Assembly: GCA_001002135.1 (NCBI GenBank)
Contig: LCLP01000002.1
Span: forward strand, 2,520 to 66,519
Source of the DNA: Candidatus Pacebacteria bacterium GW2011_GWA1_46_10
GTDB taxonomy: Bacteria; Patescibacteriota; Microgenomatia; UBA1400; PJMF01
Direction of reading: 5' to 3'
DNA length: 64,000 nt
Shown here: one piece after another, positions 9,928 through 55,832 of the stretch
How the letters are laid out: each line of letters starts with the position of its first letter
How positions within the stretch are numbered: position 1 is the first letter of the stretch
Notes under the pieces: generated by a model
Databases searched by the model: none
What the model was told of the DNA's origin: nothing
Seen by the model: only the letters and a program-made list of their open reading frames with translations
Translations under genes and position numbers: made by a program

Positions 9928-9990
9928 ACACTTTTAAGTATCAGTAGTTAGTCTGACATCAGGCGTAACACTGATATAATAGAAAAATTG

Positions 9991-11211
9991 ATGAAAACGC
10001 TTTTATACCATTTGAAATATTGGTATCACTTCTTTAAAACTGGTCTGCTGAAGGGTTTGCCCGCTGCCATTCGTTATGGTTTTCCAACCCGTAAACTGAA
10101 GATTATTGCCATTACCGGCACTGACGGTAAAACCACCTCCTCTACCCTGATGTACGAGGTCCTGAAAGCAGCCGGCAAAAAGGCAGCCTTGCTGTCCACC
10201 GTCGCCGCCTACATCGGTACTGAGCAGATTGAAACAGGTTTCCACGTCACCAGCCCTGACGCTCATGACCTCCAAAAACTGATGGCCAAGATGGTGAAAC
10301 AAAAGATTAAGTATTTGGTATTGGAATTCACGTCGCATGGCGCTTACCAGCATCGGTTGTGGGGCATTAAACCGCTAATTGCCGGGGTGACTAACGTCAC
10401 CCATGAACACTTAGACTATCATTTGACCTATGAAAATTATGTCGAGGCCAAAGCCATGATCTTGGAGCGTGCCAAGATTGTGGTCCTCAACGAGGACGAT
10501 CAATCATTTCACCGTTTAAAAAAGTATCTCACCGACCATAATCGCGTCGTCACCTATTCGGTCGAAACACCACTGCCCAAAAAGATTCGTGACGCTGTTG
10601 AACCTAAGTTTCCAGAGCTTTACAACCAAATGAACGCTCGGCTGGTCACCAAGATCGCCACTCAACTGGGTATCAATCACCAAACTATCGCCCAAGGTAT
10701 TTGGAACTTCCAGGGCGTACCAGGACGCATGGAGTTTGTGCCTAATAAGCGCGGCCTTAAGATCGTCATCGATTTTGCTCATACCCCTAACGCGCTCGAG
10801 GAGGCGCTCAAAGCTCTGCGGCGTCATATGAAGACCAACCACCTGACTGGCCGCCTGATTGCTGTATATGGTGCGGCGGGCTTGCGCGACCTCACCAAGC
10901 GCCCGCTGATGGGGAAAGTTGGCGTGCAATATGCTGACTTGGTGGTTTTTACCGCCGAAGACCCCAGAACCGAGGATGTTTGGTCAATTATCCGCCAAAT
11001 GAAAGAACAACTGGTAGTTGGTCACAATCAAGTGGTGTCGCTTGGCGACCGAGAACAAGCCATTCATTTCGCGATTAACCACCTGGCGCGGCGCGGCGAC
11101 CTCGTCGCATTCTTTGGGAAAGGTCCAGAAAAGAGTATGTGTTATGGTACCACCGAGTTTCCATGGAGCGAGCGGGCAGTGGTCGAACAAGCCCTGGCTC
11201 AGAAAAAATAG
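9991..11211 (+). CDS. murE: UDP-N-acetylmuramoyl-tripeptide synthetase (Mur ligase, MurE-like)
   Basis: GTDGKTTSSTL P-loop and DFAHTPNALEEAL (MurE DYAHTPDAL motif). Located directly upstream of murC. Confidence 0.75.
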   Translation: MKTLLYHLKYWYHFFKTGLLKGLPAAIRYGFPTRKLKIIAITGTDGKTTSSTLMYEVLKAAGKKAALLSTVAAYIGTEQIETGFHVTSPDAHDLQKLMAKMVKQKIKYLVLEFTSHGAYQHRLWGIKPLIAGVTNVTHEHLDYHLTYENYVEAKAMILERAKIVVLNEDDQSFHRLKKYLTDHNRVVTYSVETPLPKKIRDAVEPKFPELYNQMNARLVTKIATQLGINHQTIAQGIWNFQGVPGRMEFVPNKRGLKIVIDFAHTPNALEEALKALRRHMKTNHLTGRLIAVYGAAGLRDLTKRPLMGKVGVQYADLVVFTAEDPRTEDVWSIIRQMKEQLVVGHNQVVSLGDREQAIHFAINHLARRGDLVAFFGKGPEKSMCYGTTEFPWSERAVVEQALAQKK

Positions 11212-22931: not shown

Positions 22932-23159
22932 TTAGCGACGAGCCCGGCGCACGGCTTTTCGAGCAGTAGCCCGGCCTTTTTTCACCGCTTTTTTGGCTTG
23001 AGCGACGACTTTCCGTTTAGTAGTCTTTGCTTTGGCCGCCATCTTGCGTGCCTCACGACCGACCGCTTCACGGTTTTTCTTGCTGGACAAAAATACTGCC
23101 GCCGCACCGACAGTCATCCCAGTTAATAACGCGAGTAAACTACGACCTTTCTTAGCCAT
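22932..23159 (-). CDS. small membrane-anchored Lys/Ala/Arg-rich protein (75 aa)
   Basis: N-terminal TM helix (LLALLTGMTVGAAAVFL) followed by a highly basic tail. No family assigned. Confidence 0.35.
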   Translation of the reverse strand: MAKKGRSLLALLTGMTVGAAAVFLSSKKNREAVGREARKMAAKAKTTKRKVVAQAKKAVKKGRATARKAVRRARR

Positions 23160-25910: not shown

Positions 25911-27827
25911 TTACTCCTTATAAGTGTCTTCTTTTCTGGCGTAGACTCCAACCACGTATAATCTACCGTCTTCCCTCAGCTCAGCGATTACCCGATGCCG
26001 ACGACCGATCTTCAATCGGTATAAGTCAAAGCCATCTTTTGATTGATAACTGACAATTTTTCTCAGTGAGAGTAAGCCCTGATTATAAAGTTCAATTTTA
26101 CTTGTTAAATAATCTGCCGTCATCCCCGGCGGAAGTTCTTGTAAAACCTCGCGAGGTAAAATCATTTCCGGTCGCACCAACTTGGCTTCATACTCTCTTC
26201 GCAGTGAGGGTGAAACAACGTCCTCTTCAGCTGAATTTTTATTCGATCTGGCTCGTTTTTTCGAAGAAACACTGACAGCAACTCCTTTTTTCTTTGCTAC
26301 CGACACTACTTGTGGTTGGCCATTTCCCCTCTTAGCTGTCTCTTGCTGTTTCTTCACCGTTTCTTGCAACAAATCAGTCGCCAGCTTGACTAGAGCTTTG
26401 TGAACATTTTCATAAGTTTCGCTTTCTTCATCAAAATCGATCGCTAACACTTGCAAGACAAACTGTGGTTTTTTATCCTTGGTAATTTCCAACATAAATG
26501 AGATTTTCTTTGCCATACCTTCAACATTAATAAACTCAATCGAGATCAAAAAAGTCGGTGGATTTAATTCCAATTGTGACCGAAAAAGAGTTGTTTTATT
26601 TCCCGGCAAAAAATTCTCACTCAAACGGTTAAGAATCTCATCTTCAAGATGTATCTCTTTCTCTGAGAATTCCCCCACCGTTTGCCAATACTTTTCCCAA
26701 GTAGTTTGTAACTTAGCTTCTAACTGTTCTAGTGACTCAGCTGGGATTTTTAAAACTTTGGCACAAGCTGAAAGTAAAAGTTCTGGCCCATGATTTAAGC
26801 CTCTAGCGGTATCAAGAATCTTTTGAATAAAATCGTGGTACCACGGATCATTTGTTTCTTCCACATAATCCAACAGCGAGTTTAAAACATTGACAATACC
26901 ATTTTCTGTATTAGCCATTTCTCGATTCGCTAGCGAGACAGTCAACACTTTCGGAAAATCATACGTCTGACGCTGTTGATACATTTGCTCCAACGTCTCC
27001 AATAACCACCTGGCCGCGGCATGTTTTTCATCCCCAGGTTTTTTGATGGCGCCAAACACTTCCTCAAAATAACTGGAGAATGACTTCATAAAATGAATCT
27101 CGGCTGTACCCATGTGAAACTTCTTGCCGGTTTTTGTATGGCGCAGGGGAGGTATTTCATCTGATATCATTTGTTTAAAAATCTCTTGAAATGTTGACAG
27201 ATTAATATCTAAAAGATACGGGATTACTTCATCCAACAAACTCCAGTAAGAGTAGTTTTCTTCTCTTTCACAGATCCTTACCAGACACTCGGTTAAAAAC
27301 TGATATTCTTCCAGACTCAGTGGTTGTTTTCCTTTTGACACAAACGCCTGCTGAAAAACCTCAATCGGAAAGAGTGCGGCGGCTTGAAGTGACTGCCACG
27401 ACGCCGGCAGGGGATGAGTAAAGCCTTTTAACTCCAAACCAGGGCCATACAACCAAGTCGGAGTATGATAAGCCGCAATGTCCATCAAGATTTTTTCAGC
27501 TCTATTGAGTAAGCGCAGCCCCTCACCCGTGTTTTTTCTACTCATTTTTTCTAGTTCACTTCTGACTGCATTGAAAAGACTGTTAAAATCTTTCGCAATT
27601 TGTAAATCAAGGGCAATATTTTGCAGTCCCTGAATCCTGGCTTTGAGGTCGTTGGTTTCTGTGAGATTGTTTAAAGAAGAGTCATGTCTTACTTCAACCT
27701 TTTCGCGTAGCTGCCGCCAAAATGGCGCCAGTAGCGGCAGTTCCTTGGTCATCTCCTCTGTTGACTCCAGTAATAAATCATTATTTTTTTTCCACACCGC
27801 TTTGACTTCATCTTCTTCACGTGACAT
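25911..27827 (-). CDS. large hypothetical protein (about 640 aa) with a C-terminal RelE/ParE-like domain
   Basis: Helical N-terminal roughly 530 aa with no recognised family. Lys/Ser-rich basic linker (KKKGVAVSVSSKKRARSNKNS). The last roughly 95 aa (LPREVLQELPP...DLYRLKIGRRHRVIAELREDGRLYVVGVYARKE) follow the RelE/ParE toxin-fold pattern. Start set at ATG 27827; the track ORF extends to a TTG at 27899. Confidence 0.5.
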   Translation of the reverse strand: MSREEDEVKAVWKKNNDLLLESTEEMTKELPLLAPFWRQLREKVEVRHDSSLNNLTETNDLKARIQGLQNIALDLQIAKDFNSLFNAVRSELEKMSRKNTGEGLRLLNRAEKILMDIAAYHTPTWLYGPGLELKGFTHPLPASWQSLQAAALFPIEVFQQAFVSKGKQPLSLEEYQFLTECLVRICEREENYSYWSLLDEVIPYLLDINLSTFQEIFKQMISDEIPPLRHTKTGKKFHMGTAEIHFMKSFSSYFEEVFGAIKKPGDEKHAAARWLLETLEQMYQQRQTYDFPKVLTVSLANREMANTENGIVNVLNSLLDYVEETNDPWYHDFIQKILDTARGLNHGPELLLSACAKVLKIPAESLEQLEAKLQTTWEKYWQTVGEFSEKEIHLEDEILNRLSENFLPGNKTTLFRSQLELNPPTFLISIEFINVEGMAKKISFMLEITKDKKPQFVLQVLAIDFDEESETYENVHKALVKLATDLLQETVKKQQETAKRGNGQPQVVSVAKKKGVAVSVSSKKRARSNKNSAEEDVVSPSLRREYEAKLVRPEMILPREVLQELPPGMTADYLTSKIELYNQGLLSLRKIVSYQSKDGFDLYRLKIGRRHRVIAELREDGRLYVVGVYARKEDTYKE

Positions 27828-27884
27828 AGCTTCATTATAAATGCAAGTACCCCAGAGATAAAATGAACCTGATACAATCTGAGT

Positions 27885-30159: not shown

Positions 30160-30702
30160 ATGCAAGGTCACCCTTTAGAAGCGGTAAAATTTCGGTATCC
30201 TTTGCCTCCAGAACAGCTTTCTCAATACCTCAAAAAGGGAATCAAACCACCTTTAGAAATTGCTGAACTTATTACGCAATTATTTTGCGGTCCCCATGAA
30301 CAACAACACATCAAAATGCTCCATGGAGGAAACACAAATTTACTTTTGTCATACAAAGGTCACGAGAGCTCATTGGCAAGCTGGCAAATAGAAGATGAGG
30401 AAATGAAGGTAGTGGCTTTGCAGGGGGCAAAATCGAGAAAATCATGGAGGGTTTCAAATGCTGTTGATTGGCCGAAGCTTTTCGCCCATGAATCTGTTGC
30501 TCTCGCACAGATGCCCGATGCGGGAATCCGCCGAATTACCATGCCAAGCATAAAAAATATTAAAAATTTCTATAATTCAGCAGAAAGCATTCGTGATTAT
30601 GAAACGGTTCAGACTGCTGCTATCCGTTATCGAGTATTTATCGCCATCGCCATGTTAGGCTGGTCTGAAGAAGAACATCAATTTGTGAGGGATCTTAAGT
30701 AA
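30160..30702 (+). CDS. hypothetical protein (180 aa)
   Basis: ORF only. Confidence 0.3.
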   Translation: MQGHPLEAVKFRYPLPPEQLSQYLKKGIKPPLEIAELITQLFCGPHEQQHIKMLHGGNTNLLLSYKGHESSLASWQIEDEEMKVVALQGAKSRKSWRVSNAVDWPKLFAHESVALAQMPDAGIRRITMPSIKNIKNFYNSAESIRDYETVQTAAIRYRVFIAIAMLGWSEEEHQFVRDLK

Positions 30703-31297
30703 GCTCTTTGCTCTTTATTAAAGTAAGCTGTTTCCTTCTCATTCCCAGCATCGTGGCAAATAAGCCATTGCCAAAAAACCAAACTACCGGATAGAGAGAA
30801 GTAACAACGGTGTATCTTTCTAGTGCCATAACCGCTAACGCAAAGCGAAGAGTGTTAATGACATAAAAGGCAAGGGTTTCAGAATACGGTTTGCGCCAAG
30901 ATTTGCGGATAGTCGGTATAAAGGCAAAAACTTCGGTGGTAGTCAACAAAATCACTGATAATACCGGTTGTTTTGCCACTAACCACAAACTCAATGCCAC
31001 AAAAGCCAGGATAAAGAAAACCGTATCGGCCAAAACAATATCCCGTTTACCCTTTTTAAAAAAACTTAAAGTAAATACCACAATCACCGACATCGCCGCC
31101 GCTAAAGTCACAAATGCTCCGGGACCAGCCTGATCACTGATTTGCAAGGCAAACACAATCGAAGTCATAATGCCCCAAATAAACCAGCTGTAAATATGAG
31201 GTTGGATTTTGTCTTGAATCAGATCGCGGATATAGGGCACGTAACCAATAAAGGTCAGCAGCACAGCAATAATGCCAACAATAACTTTGAAATCCAT
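30695..31297 (-). CDS. hypothetical 6-TM membrane protein
   Basis: Six hydrophobic segments. Downstream of, and on the same strand as, the ATP-grasp gene. Confidence 0.4.
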   Translation of the reverse strand: MDFKVIVGIIAVLLTFIGYVPYIRDLIQDKIQPHIYSWFIWGIMTSIVFALQISDQAGPGAFVTLAAAMSVIVVFTLSFFKKGKRDIVLADTVFFILAFVALSLWLVAKQPVLSVILLTTTEVFAFIPTIRKSWRKPYSETLAFYVINTLRFALAVMALERYTVVTSLYPVVWFFGNGLFATMLGMRRKQLTLIKSKELT

Positions 31298-31311: not shown

Positions 31312-32439
31312 TCAGACAATCTTGAAGGATCTATTTATCCTCGTCCCAAACTCGGCCACGATACTTCGAATCAGTTGTTTGGACATGGCGATATTGACCT
31401 TTTTGGTCACGTCCCAGTCAATACCAGGACCAATATTGCCTTCGATAAAGTAGACATGGCTATGGTTGCTGATCACAAAATCAAGTGCGTAAAGTGATTG
31501 GGGTTTGTTAATTTTCCTGACGATTTTCCGGGCGATGGTGTGAATTCTTTTCGGAATATCACTTTCGGTCACATAAACTAGTTGCCCACCCTGGTGTTCA
31601 TTACAGCGAAAGTCATCGGCCTTGGCCATACGGATATAACACTGGAGTAATTGATCATGGTGAAATATCAAACGCAGATCAGTGGAGGTCTGCTTATTTT
31701 TATAGGCAAAACCTTTATCAAAAGAAACGAAGGGCTGTAAAACAAAGTGCATGGTTGGATGTTTCAGCATTAATTTTTTAATTCTAACTGCAAAATCCTT
31801 GGAAATTTTATAGACAAAGTTGCCGCTGGCGCCAAAACGGTCTTTCAGGACAATTTTTTCCGAAAAGTCACCGGCGTACCGCTCGTCCTGCATCAGTACG
31901 CGTAGCTTATTAAGCGCGATATCAATATCTATTGCTTTATTTGATCGAACGCTGACCGTCGGAATAGCGTAGCGGGGAAACTCTTTGTAAGTTAATTGCT
32001 TGTCAAAAAAGATATCGAAAAGCCCTACATCATTAAAAGGCGATACCGATTTATCTGATAACATTAATTTTCTTTCGGCAACCATAGCGGAGGAGAAGGG
32101 CAAAAATTTATCGAAAATCTGTCTTGACCTGGCACGTTTACCAACCTTGGACCAGTCACCCAACGAAGAAGTCCAATAGTTTTGACAGGTCCCTGGACCA
32201 ATAATATCTGACGAGGTCGTCAAGCCGGCATTCAGGCCAGACTTTTTGCATTGATCAAGAAAATAGGCATAGGACAAATTATAGTGCGCTTGTTTTGAAT
32301 CCAATAAAAATGGGTGTTGGCTATGAGCATCGGTCACAGAAGCACTAGCCGCTAAATTAGCAGAATAGACAACCAAAACGTCTAGATTGACCAAACTTTT
32401 CATAAAACATACTTGGGAATATGTGGTTCTAGTATACAC
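31312..32439 (-). CDS. ATP-grasp family ligase (orphan)
   Basis: ATP-grasp core elements VLKDRFGASGNFVYKI, LQPFV, FRCNEHQGGQ and ALDFVISNHSHVYFIEGNIGPGI (Mg/ATP-binding E-x-N). N-terminal roughly 130 aa unassigned. Confidence 0.6.
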   Translation of the reverse strand: MYTRTTYSQVCFMKSLVNLDVLVVYSANLAASASVTDAHSQHPFLLDSKQAHYNLSYAYFLDQCKKSGLNAGLTTSSDIIGPGTCQNYWTSSLGDWSKVGKRARSRQIFDKFLPFSSAMVAERKLMLSDKSVSPFNDVGLFDIFFDKQLTYKEFPRYAIPTVSVRSNKAIDIDIALNKLRVLMQDERYAGDFSEKIVLKDRFGASGNFVYKISKDFAVRIKKLMLKHPTMHFVLQPFVSFDKGFAYKNKQTSTDLRLIFHHDQLLQCYIRMAKADDFRCNEHQGGQLVYVTESDIPKRIHTIARKIVRKINKPQSLYALDFVISNHSHVYFIEGNIGPGIDWDVTKKVNIAMSKQLIRSIVAEFGTRINRSFKIV

Positions 32440-48096: not shown

Positions 48097-48384
48097 ACCT
48101 CCACTTCACAATTCTCGGTTCAAAAACTGAGAATTCTCGGCATTCGCAGATAAGGACTAGCGCCTTTCGCAGGGGCTCATCCTTTTTTCTGGTGAAGCGC
48201 ACTTTAACAAGTAAAGACTCAACAGCACCATCATGATTTCTGAAATAAACATGGTGGTGGAAATGCAAACAATTTGATGGATTTTATTTTGTGTAAAATC
48301 CGTTAATTCCAAATTGATAATTTGAATTGAACTTATTCAGTAAAATGAATGAGAAGGATTCAAACCTCAATAAGTTAAACTTTT

Positions 48385-49888
<1,504 letters not shown>

Positions 49889-50587: not shown

Positions 50588-50614
50588 TTAGCACTCGTGT
50601 ATAATGATTGCTAA
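50588..50614 (+). promoter_or_regulatory. CIRCE-type inverted repeat (HrcA operator) overlapping the clpB -10 box
   Basis: TTAGCACTC-gtgtataat-GATTGCTAA versus the consensus TTAGCACTC-N9-GAGTGCTAA (17/18). TATAAT lies in the spacer. The clpB ATG is 2 nt downstream. Confidence 0.65.
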
Positions 50615-50616
50615 TC

Positions 50617-53178
50617 ATGAATTTGAATCGATTTACCACAAAATCCGCCGAGGCCATCCAAGGCTCACTCCAATTGGCAGGCAAAATGAACCATTCAGCC
50701 TTGCACCCGTTGCATTTATTCCTTGTCCTACTGAGTCAAAAAGATGGCTTGATTCCCTCACTGGTGCAAAAACTTGAACAAGACGTCGACGCTCTCCAAG
50801 CAAAAGCAAAAGCAGCACTCACTCAATTACCAGTCACCAGTAGTTCAACCCAAGCGTATGTCTCACCCGAACTACAGCGGGTGTTCGAAGCGGCCGAAAC
50901 TGAGGCGGGCAAACTGCGCGATGAGTACATTAGCACTGAACATCTCCTTCTCGGGTTGCTCAATGACTCCAACATTAAAAAGCTCGTTGATCTTGATAAG
51001 CAAAAAGTGCTCGAAACTCTCAAAGCACTACGTGGCAGCCAGCGAGTGACTGATCCCGATCCAGAAGGCAAGTACCAAGCCTTGGAAAAATACACCCAAG
51101 ACTTCACTGAGTTAGCGCGGCTAGGCAAAATCGACCCAGTCATCGGGCGGGATGAAGAAATTCGCCGCATTACTCAAATTCTTTCTCGCCGCACCAAAAA
51201 CAATCCTGTGTTGGTGGGGGAACCGGGTACCGGCAAAACCGCCATCGTGGAAGGATTGGCCAAAAAAATCATTGACAACGACATCCCGGACGCGCTGAAA
51301 AACAAACGGGTTCTCAACTTGGATATGGGGGCACTGATTGCCGGGTCTAAATACCGCGGTGAGTTTGAGGATCGGCTGAAAGCGGTCATTAAAGAAGCGG
51401 AAGCTTCCGAAGGACAAGTAATTCTCTTTATTGATGAACTGCACACCATCGTTGGAGCTGGTGCACGGGAAGGCTCCACCGACGCCGGCAACTTACTCAA
51501 GCCTGCGCTCGCCCGCGGTCAGTTGCGCACCATCGGCGCGACGACCTTGAAAGAATACCGCAAATACTTGGAAAAAGACGCCGCACTCGAACGACGTTTC
51601 CAACCGATCATGGTCGAAGAACCTTCGGTGGAAGATGCCATTTCAATTCTACGCGGGATTAAAGAAAAATACGAAACTCACCACGGGGTCAAGATCCGTG
51701 ACAATGCACTGGTAGCCGCCGTGAAGTTATCTGATCGGTATATTGCCGATCGATTCTTACCCGACAAAGCCATTGATCTAATGGATGAGGCTGCTGCCGG
51801 TATCAGGATCGAGATCGACAGCAAACCCACCGTGATTGATCAGCTGGAGCGCAAAATTCGCCAATTGGAAATCGAAAAAACAGCTCTCAAAAAAGAAAAA
51901 GATCAAGCAAGTAAAGACCGCCTCAAGGAAATTGAAAAACAACTGGCCGAGTTCAACGAGCAACACAAACAACTGGAGCTGCACTGGCAAGCTGAGCGGC
52001 AAGCGATCGATAAAATCAAGCAGTCCAGCAAGGAAATCGATGAGTTGAAAGAGCAAGCCGCCCAAGCCGAACGCAACTACGATCTACAAAAAGTGGCCGA
52101 GATTAATTACGGCAAGATCCCGGCCCTGGAAAAACAGATTAATGAGGCCAAAAAAGAGTTGAAAAAAGTCCAGAAAGACCGGCAAATCCTCAAAGAAGAA
52201 GTGACGGAAGAAGACATCGCCGCAGTGGTGTCCCGCTGGACCGGCATTCCGGTGCAAAAAATGCTGGAGGGTGAGAGTGAGAAGCTCACCAAACTAGAAG
52301 AGGAAATCGCCAAACGAGTAATTGGTCAAAAACCAGCCGTCACCGCGGTGGCCAACGCTATCCGCCGCAACCGTGCCGGTATTGGTGAAACCAGTCGGCC
52401 AATCGGCTCGTTTATTTTCCTTGGGCCCACTGGGGTAGGGAAGACTGAACTGGCTAAAACCTTGGCCGAAGTCTTGTTCAACGACGAAAAAATGATGATT
52501 CGCATTGACATGAGTGAGTACATGGAAAAGCATTCCGTCGCTCGACTCATCGGCTCGCCGCCAGGATACGTCGGTTACGAAGAGGGTGGTCAGCTGACCG
52601 AAGCGGTGCGCCGACATCCGTACTCCGTAATTTTGTTTGATGAAATCGAAAAAGCTCACAGTGACATCTTCAATACTTTGCTGCAAATTCTCGATGATGG
52701 TCAACTGACCGATAGCAAGGGAAGAACCGTCAATTTCAAAAACGCTGTTGTTATCATGACCTCTAATCTTGGCAGCGACGTGATCGCCCAGGAACAAGGT
52801 GAGCCTGACAAACAAGCAGAAACTATTCACAAACTGCTCAAAGAACATTTCCGTCCAGAATTCTTAAACCGCATTGATGACATCATCATCTTCCAACCGC
52901 TGACTCAGGCTGAACTTACCCAAATCGTCGCCCTCCAGTTGAAAGATGTGGAACAGCGCTTGGCGCAGAAAGAAATCAGGCTGACCGTGGCACCCAAGTT
53001 GATCGAGCATTTCGCCACCGCTGGGTATGACGAAGTCTTTGGCGCCCGGCCGATGAAGCGACTGATTCAATCTGAACTCTTAGACACCCTGTCCATGGAG
53101 ATTATCCAGGGCAAACTAAAAGAAGGTGCCACTGTCAAAGCTGACTTTGACGGTCGGAAAATTACTCTCAAGTCATAA
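50617..53178 (+). CDS. clpB: ATP-dependent chaperone ClpB
   Basis: N-domain, two AAA+ modules ([15 protein letters not shown] and [15 protein letters not shown]) and a long coiled-coil middle domain between them. The presence of the middle domain indicates ClpB rather than ClpA/C. Confidence 0.9.
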
Positions 53179-53205: not shown

Positions 53206-53279
53206 GGGTGTGTAGCTCAGGTGGTTAGAGCGCTGTCCTGATAAGACAGAGGTCCCATGTTCGAGTCATGGCATACCCA
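53206..53279 (+). tRNA. tRNA-Ile (anticodon GAT)
   Basis: Acceptor gggtgtg/catacccac-region, D-arm agctcaggtggttagagc, anticodon arm ctgtc-ctgataa-gacag (GAT), T-arm ggtcc-catgttcgagt. Confidence 0.85.
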
Positions 53280-53327
53280 CTAGTATTAAATTCGACTACG
53301 AACAATTAGAGCGTCCAGCCAAGCGAA

Positions 53328-53426: not shown

Positions 53427-55832
53427 ATGGTCGGCATTTCGAGTAAACCTTCCAAAAAAACCAATGGCGCTCAGCCAGCAGTAATAAAAAGTTCATTGCT
53501 TGGACCATCACGGTACCCGGTGGTACCGCTGCGTGAAGGGGTGCTGTTTCCTCGCACTGAATCGGTCTTAAACTTTGGCCGGGATATCTCGCTTGAGGGA
53601 ATTAAGGCCGCTGCCAAACAAGCCCGTAGTATGATTGTCTTGCTTTCTCAGAAAGTGGCCGAAAAAAACTTGCCCTCACCAACTGACTTGTATCAAGTTG
53701 GTACTCTGGCAGTAGTCGAACGCACTATCAAAACCGATGAAGCCGTCAGTGCCTTGGTGCGCGGGCTGGGCCGAGTGAAAGTCAGCCGTTTCACCAAAGA
53801 TCAGCCATATTTAGAAGCGCAGGTAAGTAGATTAAAAGACGTTGAGATTGATGATGATGAAACCAAAGCGTTGGCCAATCACCTGCAGAAATCATTCCGT
53901 AAAACCGTCCAAATGGGTAAACCAGTGGAGTTTCTCAACTTCATGAAACTGCTGGGCGGCGTTAAACCAGGAGAGTTAGCTGATCAAGTCGCCAGCACCT
54001 TAAACATCACCACTGACATTAAACAAAGTATTTTGGAGACCACGAGCGTTAAAGACCGCTTGAAACTGGTCATCAAACACCTCACCCACGAAGTCAAAGT
54101 ACTGGAAATCGAAAAAGATGTCGTCCATAAAACTCAGGAACAGTTTGATAAACACATGCGGGAAAGCGTCCTGCGAGAACGGATGCGTACTATTCAAAAG
54201 GAACTTGGCGAGCTGGATGATGAAAAAGAGCTGGCCGGCAATTATGCTCAAAAACTCAAAAAACTCAAAGTAAATGCTGATGCTAAAGACAAGATCGGCA
54301 AAGAAATTAAGCGTCTCCAACAAATGTCTCCCAACAATCCTGAGAGTGGGTACGTGCGCTCGTGGTTGGATACTGTTTTCGAATTGCCATGGGGTAAAAG
54401 CACCACTACCAAAATTAATTTAAAAAAGGCCCAGCAAACTCTTGACGAGGCACACTATGGTCTGACCGACGTCAAAGACCGAGTGCTGGAACATATCGCT
54501 GTCTTGGAACTTAAACAACACACCCAAGGTAAAAAAGACAGCCAAATGCCCACCATTTTGTGTTTTGTTGGCCCACCCGGAGTAGGGAAAACAAGCATCG
54601 GCCGTTCCATTGCTGACGCCCTGGGGAAAACCTTTGTTAAAATTTCACTCGGCGGGATTCGTGATGAAGCCGAGATTCGCGGTCACCGGCGCACCTATGT
54701 CGGCTCCATGCCGGGCAAAATCATCAATGGCATTAAACAAGCCAAGAGTATGGACCCCGTTTTTATGCTGGATGAAATCGATAAAGTCGGCAGCGACTTT
54801 CGTGGTGACCCATCATCGGCACTCTTGGAAGTACTCGACCCAGAACAAAACAAAGAGTTTGTTGACCATTATCTTGATTTGCCTTTTGACTTATCAAAAG
54901 TCACTTTTATTACCACCGCCAACACCCTAGACGCCATTCCGCCAGCCCTCAAAGACCGGTTAGAGGTTATTCGTTACGTGGGCTATATCCCAGAAGAAAA
55001 ACTGCAAATTGCCAAGCGTCACTTAGTTAAAAAAGTCCTCACCGCTAATGGTCTGACGGACAAAAACCTCCGCTACACTGACGCTGCTTTGGCAAAAATC
55101 ATCGGCGGCTATACCCGAGAGGCTGGTGTTAGAAACCTTGAGCGTCAACTCCATACTATTGCCAGAAAAATTGCCCGCAAACTGATTACACAAACCAACC
55201 CAAAAACCGAGGCCGTCACTCCCAGTCAATTGACCAATTTACTAGGCCCACGCGAATACGACGAGGGTTTGGCTGAAAAAGAAGACCTGATTGGTGCCGC
55301 CACCGGCCTGGCCTGGACACCAGTTGGCGGTGATATTTTATTCGTCGAAGTGGCACTCACTCCTGGCAAAGGCAAAATCAATTTGACCGGCAAGCTCGGT
55401 GAAGTGATGAAAGAATCAGCCCAAGCTGCTCTGACTTATGTCAAAGCTCACGCCAAAGAATTAGCCGTCAAACAGAAAATGCTCGAGACCACCAACGTTC
55501 ACATCCATGTGCCTGAAGGAGCTGTGCCGAAAGACGGCCCTTCTGCTGGCGTGACAATTGCTACCGCGGTCGTTTCAGCCTTTACTGATCGACCAGTGAA
55601 AAAATCAGTCGCCATGACTGGTGAAATAACCCTACGGGGAAAAGTGCTCCGCATTGGTGGCCTCAAAGAAAAAACCATTGCTGCTCACCGGGCCGGCATC
55701 ACTACTGTCATTATTCCCAAAGACAATCAACGTGATTTAGCAAAACTGCCTGATGGAGTGAAAAAGGCCGTGGCTTTCAAACCAGTTGACTCAATTGGTG
55801 AAGTCTTAAAAATAGCCCTCTTAAAGGCTTAG
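53427..55832 (+). CDS. lon: ATP-dependent Lon protease (LonA)
   Basis: Lon N-domain, AAA+ module GPPGVGKTS, protease domain with the catalytic Ser in PKDGPSAG. Confidence 0.9.

Follow-up and report, generated by a model that had tools for sequence, protein, structure and literature searches.

Stand-alone RelE toxins, exemplified by Escherichia coli RelE (Protein Data Bank (PDB) entries 4v7k and 4fxe), the archaeal aRelE (1wmi) and the RelE/StbE proteins of the Pfam family PF05016, are about 90 residues long. RelE-type domains are also located at the extreme C-terminus of the large Tox-RelE polymorphic toxins, which possess signal peptides or are exported by a type II secretion system, carry RHS repeats and HINT releasing peptidases and are accompanied downstream by the immunity gene Imm54 (Zhang, de Souza, Anantharaman, Iyer and Aravind, 2012; PMC3482391). 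Fused toxin-antitoxin (TA) modules encoded by one gene, the transmembrane ToxM and the ptuXYZ systems have been described (Gerdes, 2025; PMC11980606), while that work left aside many multidomain proteins of the BECR fold that have too few members or lack an identifiable antitoxin. The protein considered here belongs in this remainder. It is the 638-amino acid product of a gene on the minus strand of a 64,000-nucleotide stretch of contig LCLP01000002.1 (positions 2,520 to 66,519; hereafter the window) from Candidatus Pacebacteria bacterium GW2011_GWA1_46_10, and forms a family with two homologues, P0002 and P0005. With a probability of roughly one half, this Candidatus Pacebacteria protein is a lineage-restricted RelE/ParE (BECR-fold) superfamily member with several domains, the most likely working model being a toxin and its regulator combined in one gene. 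Ranked in descending order, the rival explanations are an RNA- or ribosome-binding module that is catalytically tamed, a Tox-RelE-like effector for export, a chance resemblance and a ParE-like gyrase poison.

With the stand-alone RelE toxins the C-terminal domain shares the predicted order of fold elements, a basic surface charge, basic residues at the positions of R61 and R81, a tyrosine at that of Y87 and the C-terminal signature (D)LYRLRxG-YRV...R(K)xDxY, ending a few residues past the tyrosine. On the other hand, it is the tail of a long polypeptide, is accompanied by neither a relB-like nor another antitoxin gene, is too divergent in sequence for any curated model, has one more strand (588-595) between its helix 2 and the strand of YRLKI and carries an invariant alanine (A615) in place of the usual Tyr or Cys after 'YRVI'. 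The position at the extreme end of a large protein and the R61/R81-equivalent active site are as in Tox-RelE, while none of the export, RHS, HINT or immunity features of those toxins is present. As in the fusions described by Gerdes (2025), a toxin domain is joined within one polypeptide to a part that is not a toxin, and a separate antitoxin gene is lacking; those proteins, however, carry antitoxin domains (YefM, ParD, HigA/YiaG helix-turn-helix (HTH), BrnA, MqsA), the ToxM transmembrane domain or are part of ptuXYZ operons, whereas the partner here is a region of ~500 residues of no known family, outside any defence island. Compared with a classical type II toxin, the protein has the fold, as predicted, and the active site of the superfamily, but not the model-threshold score, the size or the antitoxin gene, and it shows none of the accessory features of polymorphic toxins or of the described TA fusions. 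Its architecture is a new one within a known superfamily, and the family of three members is an orphan. An earlier note on this DNA had called the fusion of a RelE fold to a large protein unusual, which it is, but not unprecedented, as Tox-RelE (PMC3482391) and multidomain RelE/ParE proteins (PMC11980606) have been described.

The C-terminal domain

25914..26186, minus strand: C-terminal RelE/ParE-like (BECR-fold) domain, residues 548-638, isoelectric point (pI) 9.4
Predicted elements within this domain: strand (residues 555-556), helix (559-562), helix (571-582), strand (588-595), strand (601-607), strand (611-617), strand (623-630)
25920..26018, minus strand: stretch with the four residues aligned to the RelE active site, with their codons: R604 (26016-26018), R612 (25992-25994), R631 (25935-25937), Y636 (25920-25922)

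The C-terminal domain very probably has the RelE/ParE fold. The earlier note had proposed as much from the C-terminal string YRLKIGRRHRVIAELREDGRLYVVGVYARKE (residues 603-633), and profile matches, an AlphaFold model, a Foldseek search and the equivalents of R61, R81 and Y87 bear it out, at marginal statistics. A profile of the three C-terminal domains of the family, searched against 5.8 billion proteins, returned exactly two matches, P0006 and P0007 (E=0.015 and 0.088; 33 and 31 bits), both 87-residue members of PF05016 that themselves pass the Pfam threshold of this family and are 42-45% identical to the domain over the last 40 residues; the cluster of both is named 'mRNA interferase RelE/StbE' by the Joint Genome Institute (JGI). 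P0006 and the window domain agree at 18 of 40 positions over DLYRLKIGRRHRVIAELREDGRLYVVGVYARKEDTYK, including the signature RxxxG-YRV...R(K)EDTYR. P0006 in addition matches the archaeal RelE 1wmi (E=1e-5) and 2khe, the latter of which in turn matches E. coli RelE. Against 177,635 PDB sequences the best match of the three-domain profile is again the aRelE of Pyrococcus horikoshii, 1wmi (positions 15-90 of 91, E=0.058), and the top two Pfam matches of the P0002 domain are ParE_toxin PF05016 (E=0.12, 13.4 bits at a cut-off of 23) and the HigB-like Gp49 (E=0.14, 12.7 bits). Alignment of the family profile with two PDB RelE sequences by hhalign gives P=2.6e-4, or 1.7e-5 with P0006 and P0007 added, at a probability of 42-78%. 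RelE hidden Markov models were also scanned over 1332 six-frame open reading frames (ORFs) from the window and related loci. The model including P0006 and P0007 placed the C-termini of all three members first, while the model from the two PDB sequences alone placed two members first and did not list the window's own protein.

The predicted structure points in the same direction. AlphaFold2 models residues 548-638 from a five-row alignment with a predicted local distance difference test (pLDDT) score of 86.4 and a predicted template-modelling (pTM) score of 0.76, with the elements in the order strand, helix, helix and four strands (b-a-a-b-b-b(-b)), which is the order of RelE; the N-terminal strand, two helices and antiparallel C-terminal sheet of the superfamily fold are all present in the model. 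Upon a Foldseek search of the PDB, 12 of 12 structures with a template-modelling (TM) score of at least 0.45 were RelE-superfamily toxins (HP0892, HP0894, YoeB, HigB, YafQ, BrnT, RelK), with a probability of up to 0.99.

Several observations weigh against this assignment. The full protein finds nothing meaningful in Pfam, NCBIfam, PADLOC, PHROGs and PDB sequence searches, the window's own domain has no RelE/ParE match in the first four of these libraries even at E<=10, and BLAST produces no alignment of the domain with E. coli RelE. No curated model reaches its threshold and every statistic is marginal. The hhalign similarity is confined to the last ~37 residues, the best Foldseek TM score is 0.56, and the five-row alignment behind the model includes P0006 and P0007, genuine RelE/ParE proteins chosen by similarity, which may bias it. 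In the active site, the residue aligned with K54 has a register uncertain by two residues relative to K52, and position 606 is not conserved (K/R/P) among the members. An improbable explanation that would accommodate such points is a chance resemblance, the C-terminus being a small alpha+beta domain with no relation to RelE/ParE: all statistics are below threshold, the two RelE rows may steer the model, and SnoaL-like and cystatin-like folds appear at similar Foldseek E-values. These unrelated folds, however, reach TM scores of 0.2-0.3 and a probability of at most 0.3, compared with 0.45-0.56 and up to 0.99 for the RelE family; the identical order of elements in the domain appears in the low-confidence model of the full-length protein, which was built from the single sequence without any RelE input; the motif identity with P0006 (above) is left without a reason by chance; and independent methods converge on one superfamily. 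The similarity is also not that of a generic beta-hairpin, as the last ~37 residues form the three strands bearing the active-site residues.

In work ascribed to Neubauer et al. in 2009, K52, K54, R61, R81 and Y87 are reportedly catalytic in the cleavage of A-site mRNA by RelE. In an alignment of E. coli RelE (its sequence checked against PDB 4v7k), 2khe, 1wmi, P0006 and the three family members, R61 corresponds to R612 and Y87 to Y636 in fully invariant columns, R81 aligns with R631 and K54 with R604. R604, R612, R631 and Y636 are invariant in the three members despite an overall identity of 23-35%, so that the conservation of catalytic positions that the earlier note had asked about holds for the equivalents of R61, R81 and Y87; R552, K577 and R589 are further invariant basic residues. 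R61 and R81 are the two residues by which the active site of RelE toxins has been defined (Zhang et al., 2012; PMC3482391).

The nearest sequence relatives being filed under PF05016 'ParE_toxin', a ParE-type domain that poisons DNA gyrase, instead of a RelE-type ribonuclease (RNase), might be considered, but is very improbable. The Pfam name need not mean that a protein poisons gyrase, as E. coli RelE itself and an entire subcluster of ribosome-dependent mRNases are members of PF05016 (Gerdes, 2025; PMC11980606). Moreover, the cluster of the nearest relatives carries the name RelE/StbE, P0006 matches aRelE, the equivalents of R61, R81 and Y87 are kept, and the domain ends two residues past Y636, like aRelE.

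Some matches in these searches were set aside. MBF1, histone and YycE (E~0.2) in the library scans were dismissed as noise, and the 'Cake' designed beta-propeller repeat proteins, found upon a phmmer search of the PDB with residues 543-638 (E=1e-11), are an artefact of summing identical repeats: each of the 5-9 repeats has an E-value of 300-1100, which makes the whole-sequence E-value misleading. Foldseek against viral structures was uninformative.

The domain opens with an invariant 'RPxM' (window 26163-26174, residues 552-555), which is kept in P0002 and P0005. In the alignment, M555 falls on the start methionine of stand-alone RelE toxins, and it may on this ground be what remains of the start codon of a toxin gene that was once separate. 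An internal start at M555 yielding a free toxin was considered and is unsupported, with no Shine-Dalgarno-like sequence upstream in any member.

The locus and its relatives

The earlier note had seen no antitoxin-like small ORF beside the gene, and this stands at all three loci. Neither an adjacent antitoxin gene nor an immunity gene is present in the window, at the P0002 locus (L002) or at the P0005 loci (L003/L004), and none of these loci leaves space for a flanking ORF. In the window, the stop codon lies 3 bp from a convergent RibD_C/DHFR-like gene and the start 57 bp from a divergent PfkB gene, so that no small flanking ORF is possible; at L002 the downstream side is arranged likewise. Within the three proteins themselves, Pfam, NCBIfam, PADLOC and PDB profile searches reveal no antitoxin-type domain (YefM/Phd, ParD/ribbon-helix-helix, HigA/YiaG HTH, BrnA, MqsA).

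Relatives are few. When 1.84 billion representative proteins were searched exhaustively with phmmer, four matches were obtained, namely a fragment of the protein itself, P0002 (627 residues, 35% identity, aligned end to end), P0005 (659 residues, 26% identity over the matched stretches in the search and 23% in the full-length alignment A1) and P0004, a repetitive Ser/Thr-rich protein that was rejected as a compositional match. A word-indexed search with the full-length alignment returned the query alone, and no relatives were found in pattern scans of genome, metagenome and viral contigs or by tblastn against plasmids and phages. With three sequences in about 15 billion the family is tiny, which limits its general importance.

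The surroundings of the gene are those of an ordinary chromosome, with pyruvate kinase, a Vut_1 transporter, RibD_C/DHFR-like, PfkB, AdoHcy hydrolase, UvrA/B/D, ClpB and Lon as well as a 16S rRNA gene and eight tRNAs in the window. L002 is syntenic with the window (AdoHcyase, PfkB, the gene itself, RibD_C, Vut_1, pyruvate kinase, aminotransferase), whereas the context of P0005 differs altogether from that of these two Pacebacteria copies (MGMT-like, Band_7, NfeD, an HTH protein and a DUF8128-matching gene); across the loci, neighbours are thus RibD_C-like, PfkB, MGMT-like and Band_7 genes. Between the window and L002 the protein is 35% identical, compared with 66-90% for the flanking proteins. 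Along the protein, the C-terminal domain is the best-conserved part (55-58% identity versus 18-44% along the N-terminal part). From the syntenic locus and these identities it follows that the gene has been vertically retained in at least two related genomes and evolves unusually fast, under the strongest constraint in its C-terminal domain.

As to the distribution of the architecture in related genomes, the three members are not joined by others at the same locus in the next-closest genomes. A walk along the locus from PfkB showed that Candidatus Pacebacteria RIFOXYA1_FULL_38_18, the nearest genome in GTDB (PfkB 68% identical), has other genes at this place, and on the metagenome contig L006 (PfkB 72% identical) other genes adjoin PfkB, with no family member. 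The position being occupied by other genes, the family is absent there and not merely diverged. Fast evolution and patchy presence together are more in keeping with an accessory or conflict gene than with a core ribosome factor.

Patescibacteria are largely epibionts, and a rather improbable reading of the protein is that of a delivered effector of the polymorphic toxin type, exported by the episymbiont into a host or competitor, where the C-terminal RNase would act while the N-terminus serves export or entry. C-terminal RelE domains of large secreted toxins are documented (Tox-RelE; PMC3482391) and the N-terminal region is fast-evolving. At L003 (4499-6484) and L004, the P0005 gene directly follows the MGMT-like gene and lies ~2.4 kb from a 661-residue DUF8128 match, the product of which has weak (DUF87, TrwB_AAD_bind) or faint (T4SS-DNA_transf) matches to ATPases of the type IV secretion system. 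Such delivery, however, is at odds with the lack of a signal peptide or transmembrane segment in the 638-residue protein (maximum Kyte-Doolittle 19-mer score 0.99) and with the N-terminal 547 residues, which have no Pfam match and in none of the three members show a detectable secretion signal or an RHS, filamentous-haemagglutinin, HINT, trafficking or other known domain. It also finds no downstream immunity gene at any locus, no toxin-cassette arrays and nothing in the plasmid, phage or viral collections.

The linker, the N-terminal region and control in cis

26187..26327, minus strand: basic Lys/Ser/Arg-rich linker, residues ~501-547, with a KKR cluster (pI 10.4 for residues 497-547)
26328..26609, minus strand: beta unit plus long helix, residues ~407-500 (four strands 413-463, helix 470-500; low-confidence prediction)
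26610..27827, minus strand: acidic, predicted all-helical N-terminal region, residues 1-406, no detectable family
26793-27482, minus strand: N-terminal core common to the three members, residues ~116-345, with the motifs HTPxW..GPG, EEYxF, DPRHxAA(R/K) and EETxDPWY

All three members share one plan: the N-terminal region is acidic and helical and contains a conserved core, a basic linker follows, and a conserved C-terminal domain of ~90 residues closes the chain. The earlier note had recognised the Lys/Ser-rich linker correctly; it has a pLDDT of 25-33 in the single-sequence model and is probably disordered by this measure, and it is poorly conserved in sequence, yet present in three of three members (residues ~500-535 in P0002 and ~520-570 in P0005). 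The Lys/Arg clusters in the three linkers, KKRARS, KKRNK and KRKKRKRMK, resemble an RNA-binding tract or a nuclear-localisation-like signal.

The N-terminus had been described as helical over ~530 residues and without a recognisable family. The second part is confirmed by library and PDB profile searches, and residues ~407-500 likewise match no family, and the low-confidence model predicts helices as well as strands at 413-463. Residues 1-496 have a pI of 5.1 and a net charge of about -21, and are predicted by that model to be mostly helical. As the single-sequence AlphaFold model of the whole protein, a check that the earlier note had proposed, reaches a pLDDT of 41, it is usable for the order of secondary structure elements only.

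Taken together, the last ~90 residues very probably form a highly divergent RelE-type domain that has retained the Arg/Arg/Tyr set. This domain would be an effector that cleaves RNA, probably on the ribosome, or that at the least binds RNA or ribosomes. A basic and probably disordered tether of ~50 residues joins it to an acidic, predicted mostly helical region of ~500 residues found nowhere else, and this fast-evolving region may restrain or direct the domain in cis, in place of the missing antitoxin, with the flexible basic linker allowing the domain to swing out. That the domain still binds, and probably cuts, RNA is suggested by the conserved Arg/Arg/Tyr set and the stronger constraint on the domain; restraint or direction in cis by the N-terminal region is suggested by the harm expected from a RelE left unchecked and by the acidity, size and rapid evolution of the remaining polypeptide. 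The acidic N-terminus (pI 5.1) against a basic linker and domain (10.4 and 9.4) reproduces the charge pattern of antitoxin/toxin pairs. From the combination of these features we infer RNase activity, ribosome dependence and cis-regulation.

This model has its own difficulties. An active RelE without antitoxin should harm the cell, so that the domain may be catalytically tamed, no link between the N-terminal region and antitoxins or sensors has emerged, and the gene has housekeeping genes around it and is part of neither a defence island nor a mobile element. First among the alternatives, although unlikely, is accordingly a domesticated RelE fold that no longer cleaves and serves as an RNA- or ribosome-binding module, bringing the N-terminal region to ribosomes or transcripts in normal physiology. 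The absence of an antitoxin gene at every locus, the stable syntenic place among housekeeping genes in two genomes, the basic linker with the many invariant basic residues (R552, K577, R589, R604, R612, R631) and the substitution of the canonical aromatic residue after the YR motif by the invariant A615 would all suit such a module. It would not lead one to expect that exactly the residues of RelE catalysis (the equivalents of R61, R81 and Y87) are invariant, nor that the gene evolves far faster than its housekeeping neighbours and is missing from the equivalent locus in the next-closest genomes.

Returning to a toxin with its regulator in one gene, a more specific version is tentative and, as it stands, doubtful: a single-gene toxin of the candidate phyla radiation in which an active RelE-type RNase is permanently tethered to a large, fast-evolving acidic domain of novel fold, which would serve as built-in antitoxin and as a sensor of phage, host or stress that sets the RNase free, similar to CapRel with unrelated parts, or in which that domain leads the RNase into the cell of the epibiont's host. 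The N-terminus may contain a neutralising region of a novel kind that acts in cis. If the domain is an active RelE-type RNase, a bacterium with a minimal genome would possess a RelE toxin that lacks both an antitoxin gene and a recognisable antitoxin domain, which raises the questions of how the RNase is kept harmless and what triggers its activity. It would represent a fourth multidomain RelE/ParE architecture, beside TA fusions, ToxM and ptuXYZ, and a first way into the function of one of the numerous 'hypothetical' orphans among the proteins of Patescibacteria. If inactive, it would provide a case of toxin-fold domestication.

Gene start and neighbouring features

27834..27839, minus strand: TATAAT hexamer, exactly 6 nt upstream of the ATG (sequence read directly)

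The earlier note had placed an ORF of 640 residues at 25911-27827. The ORF exists there, on the minus strand, as a complete coding sequence of 638 amino acids plus stop from an ATG, the product of which is 100% identical to KKU18072.1, KKU84561.1 and HCR81657.1 at NCBI, each annotated as 'hypothetical protein' in metagenome-assembled genomes of Candidatus Pacebacteria. It is a real gene, since it is conserved at full length in the syntenic locus (35% identity) and in a third, more distant sequence. The ATG is the likelier start, because residue 7 of P0002 aligns onto residue 12 of the ATG reading and because the TATAAT hexamer stands 6 nt upstream. An alternative TTG start, reading to 27899, is disfavoured as it would overlap the divergently transcribed gene of the PfkB-family kinase.

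At L002 (~9989-9994, plus strand), TATAAT precedes the ATG of the homologue with the identical spacing of 6 nt, and neither there nor in the window gene does a Shine-Dalgarno sequence stand between the two; a consensus promoter scan called no full promoter at 27834-27839. The hexamer at this distance, without a Shine-Dalgarno sequence in between, suggests that the mRNA is probably leaderless. The guanine plus cytosine (GC) content of the gene is 0.41, compared with 0.467 for the window, which is not diagnostic of horizontal transfer, as other poorly conserved neighbours have matching GC.

Elsewhere in the window, the 16S rRNA gene (48382-49887) is followed by clpB (50608-53178), tRNA-Ile (53206-53280) and lon (53427-55832), and no 23S gene is present in the remaining 14 kb; the rRNA genes appear to be unlinked, with protein genes separating 16S from tRNA-Ile. 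Two adjacent ORFs without Pfam match, one of 180 residues (30160-30702, plus strand) and a hydrophobic one of 200 residues (30695-31297, minus strand), have a GC of 0.41-0.42, as low as that of the 638-residue gene, and are followed by an ATP-grasp (RimK-like) gene (31312-32439), a RimK-like gene being located also near the homologous locus L002. The genes for the aminotransferase and pyruvate kinase enclose an ORF of 75 residues (22932-23159, minus strand), the very basic product of which has an N-terminal hydrophobic segment and a Lys/Ala/Arg-rich tail, and a gene of 60 residues occupies the equivalent position at L002 (14758-14940, plus strand).

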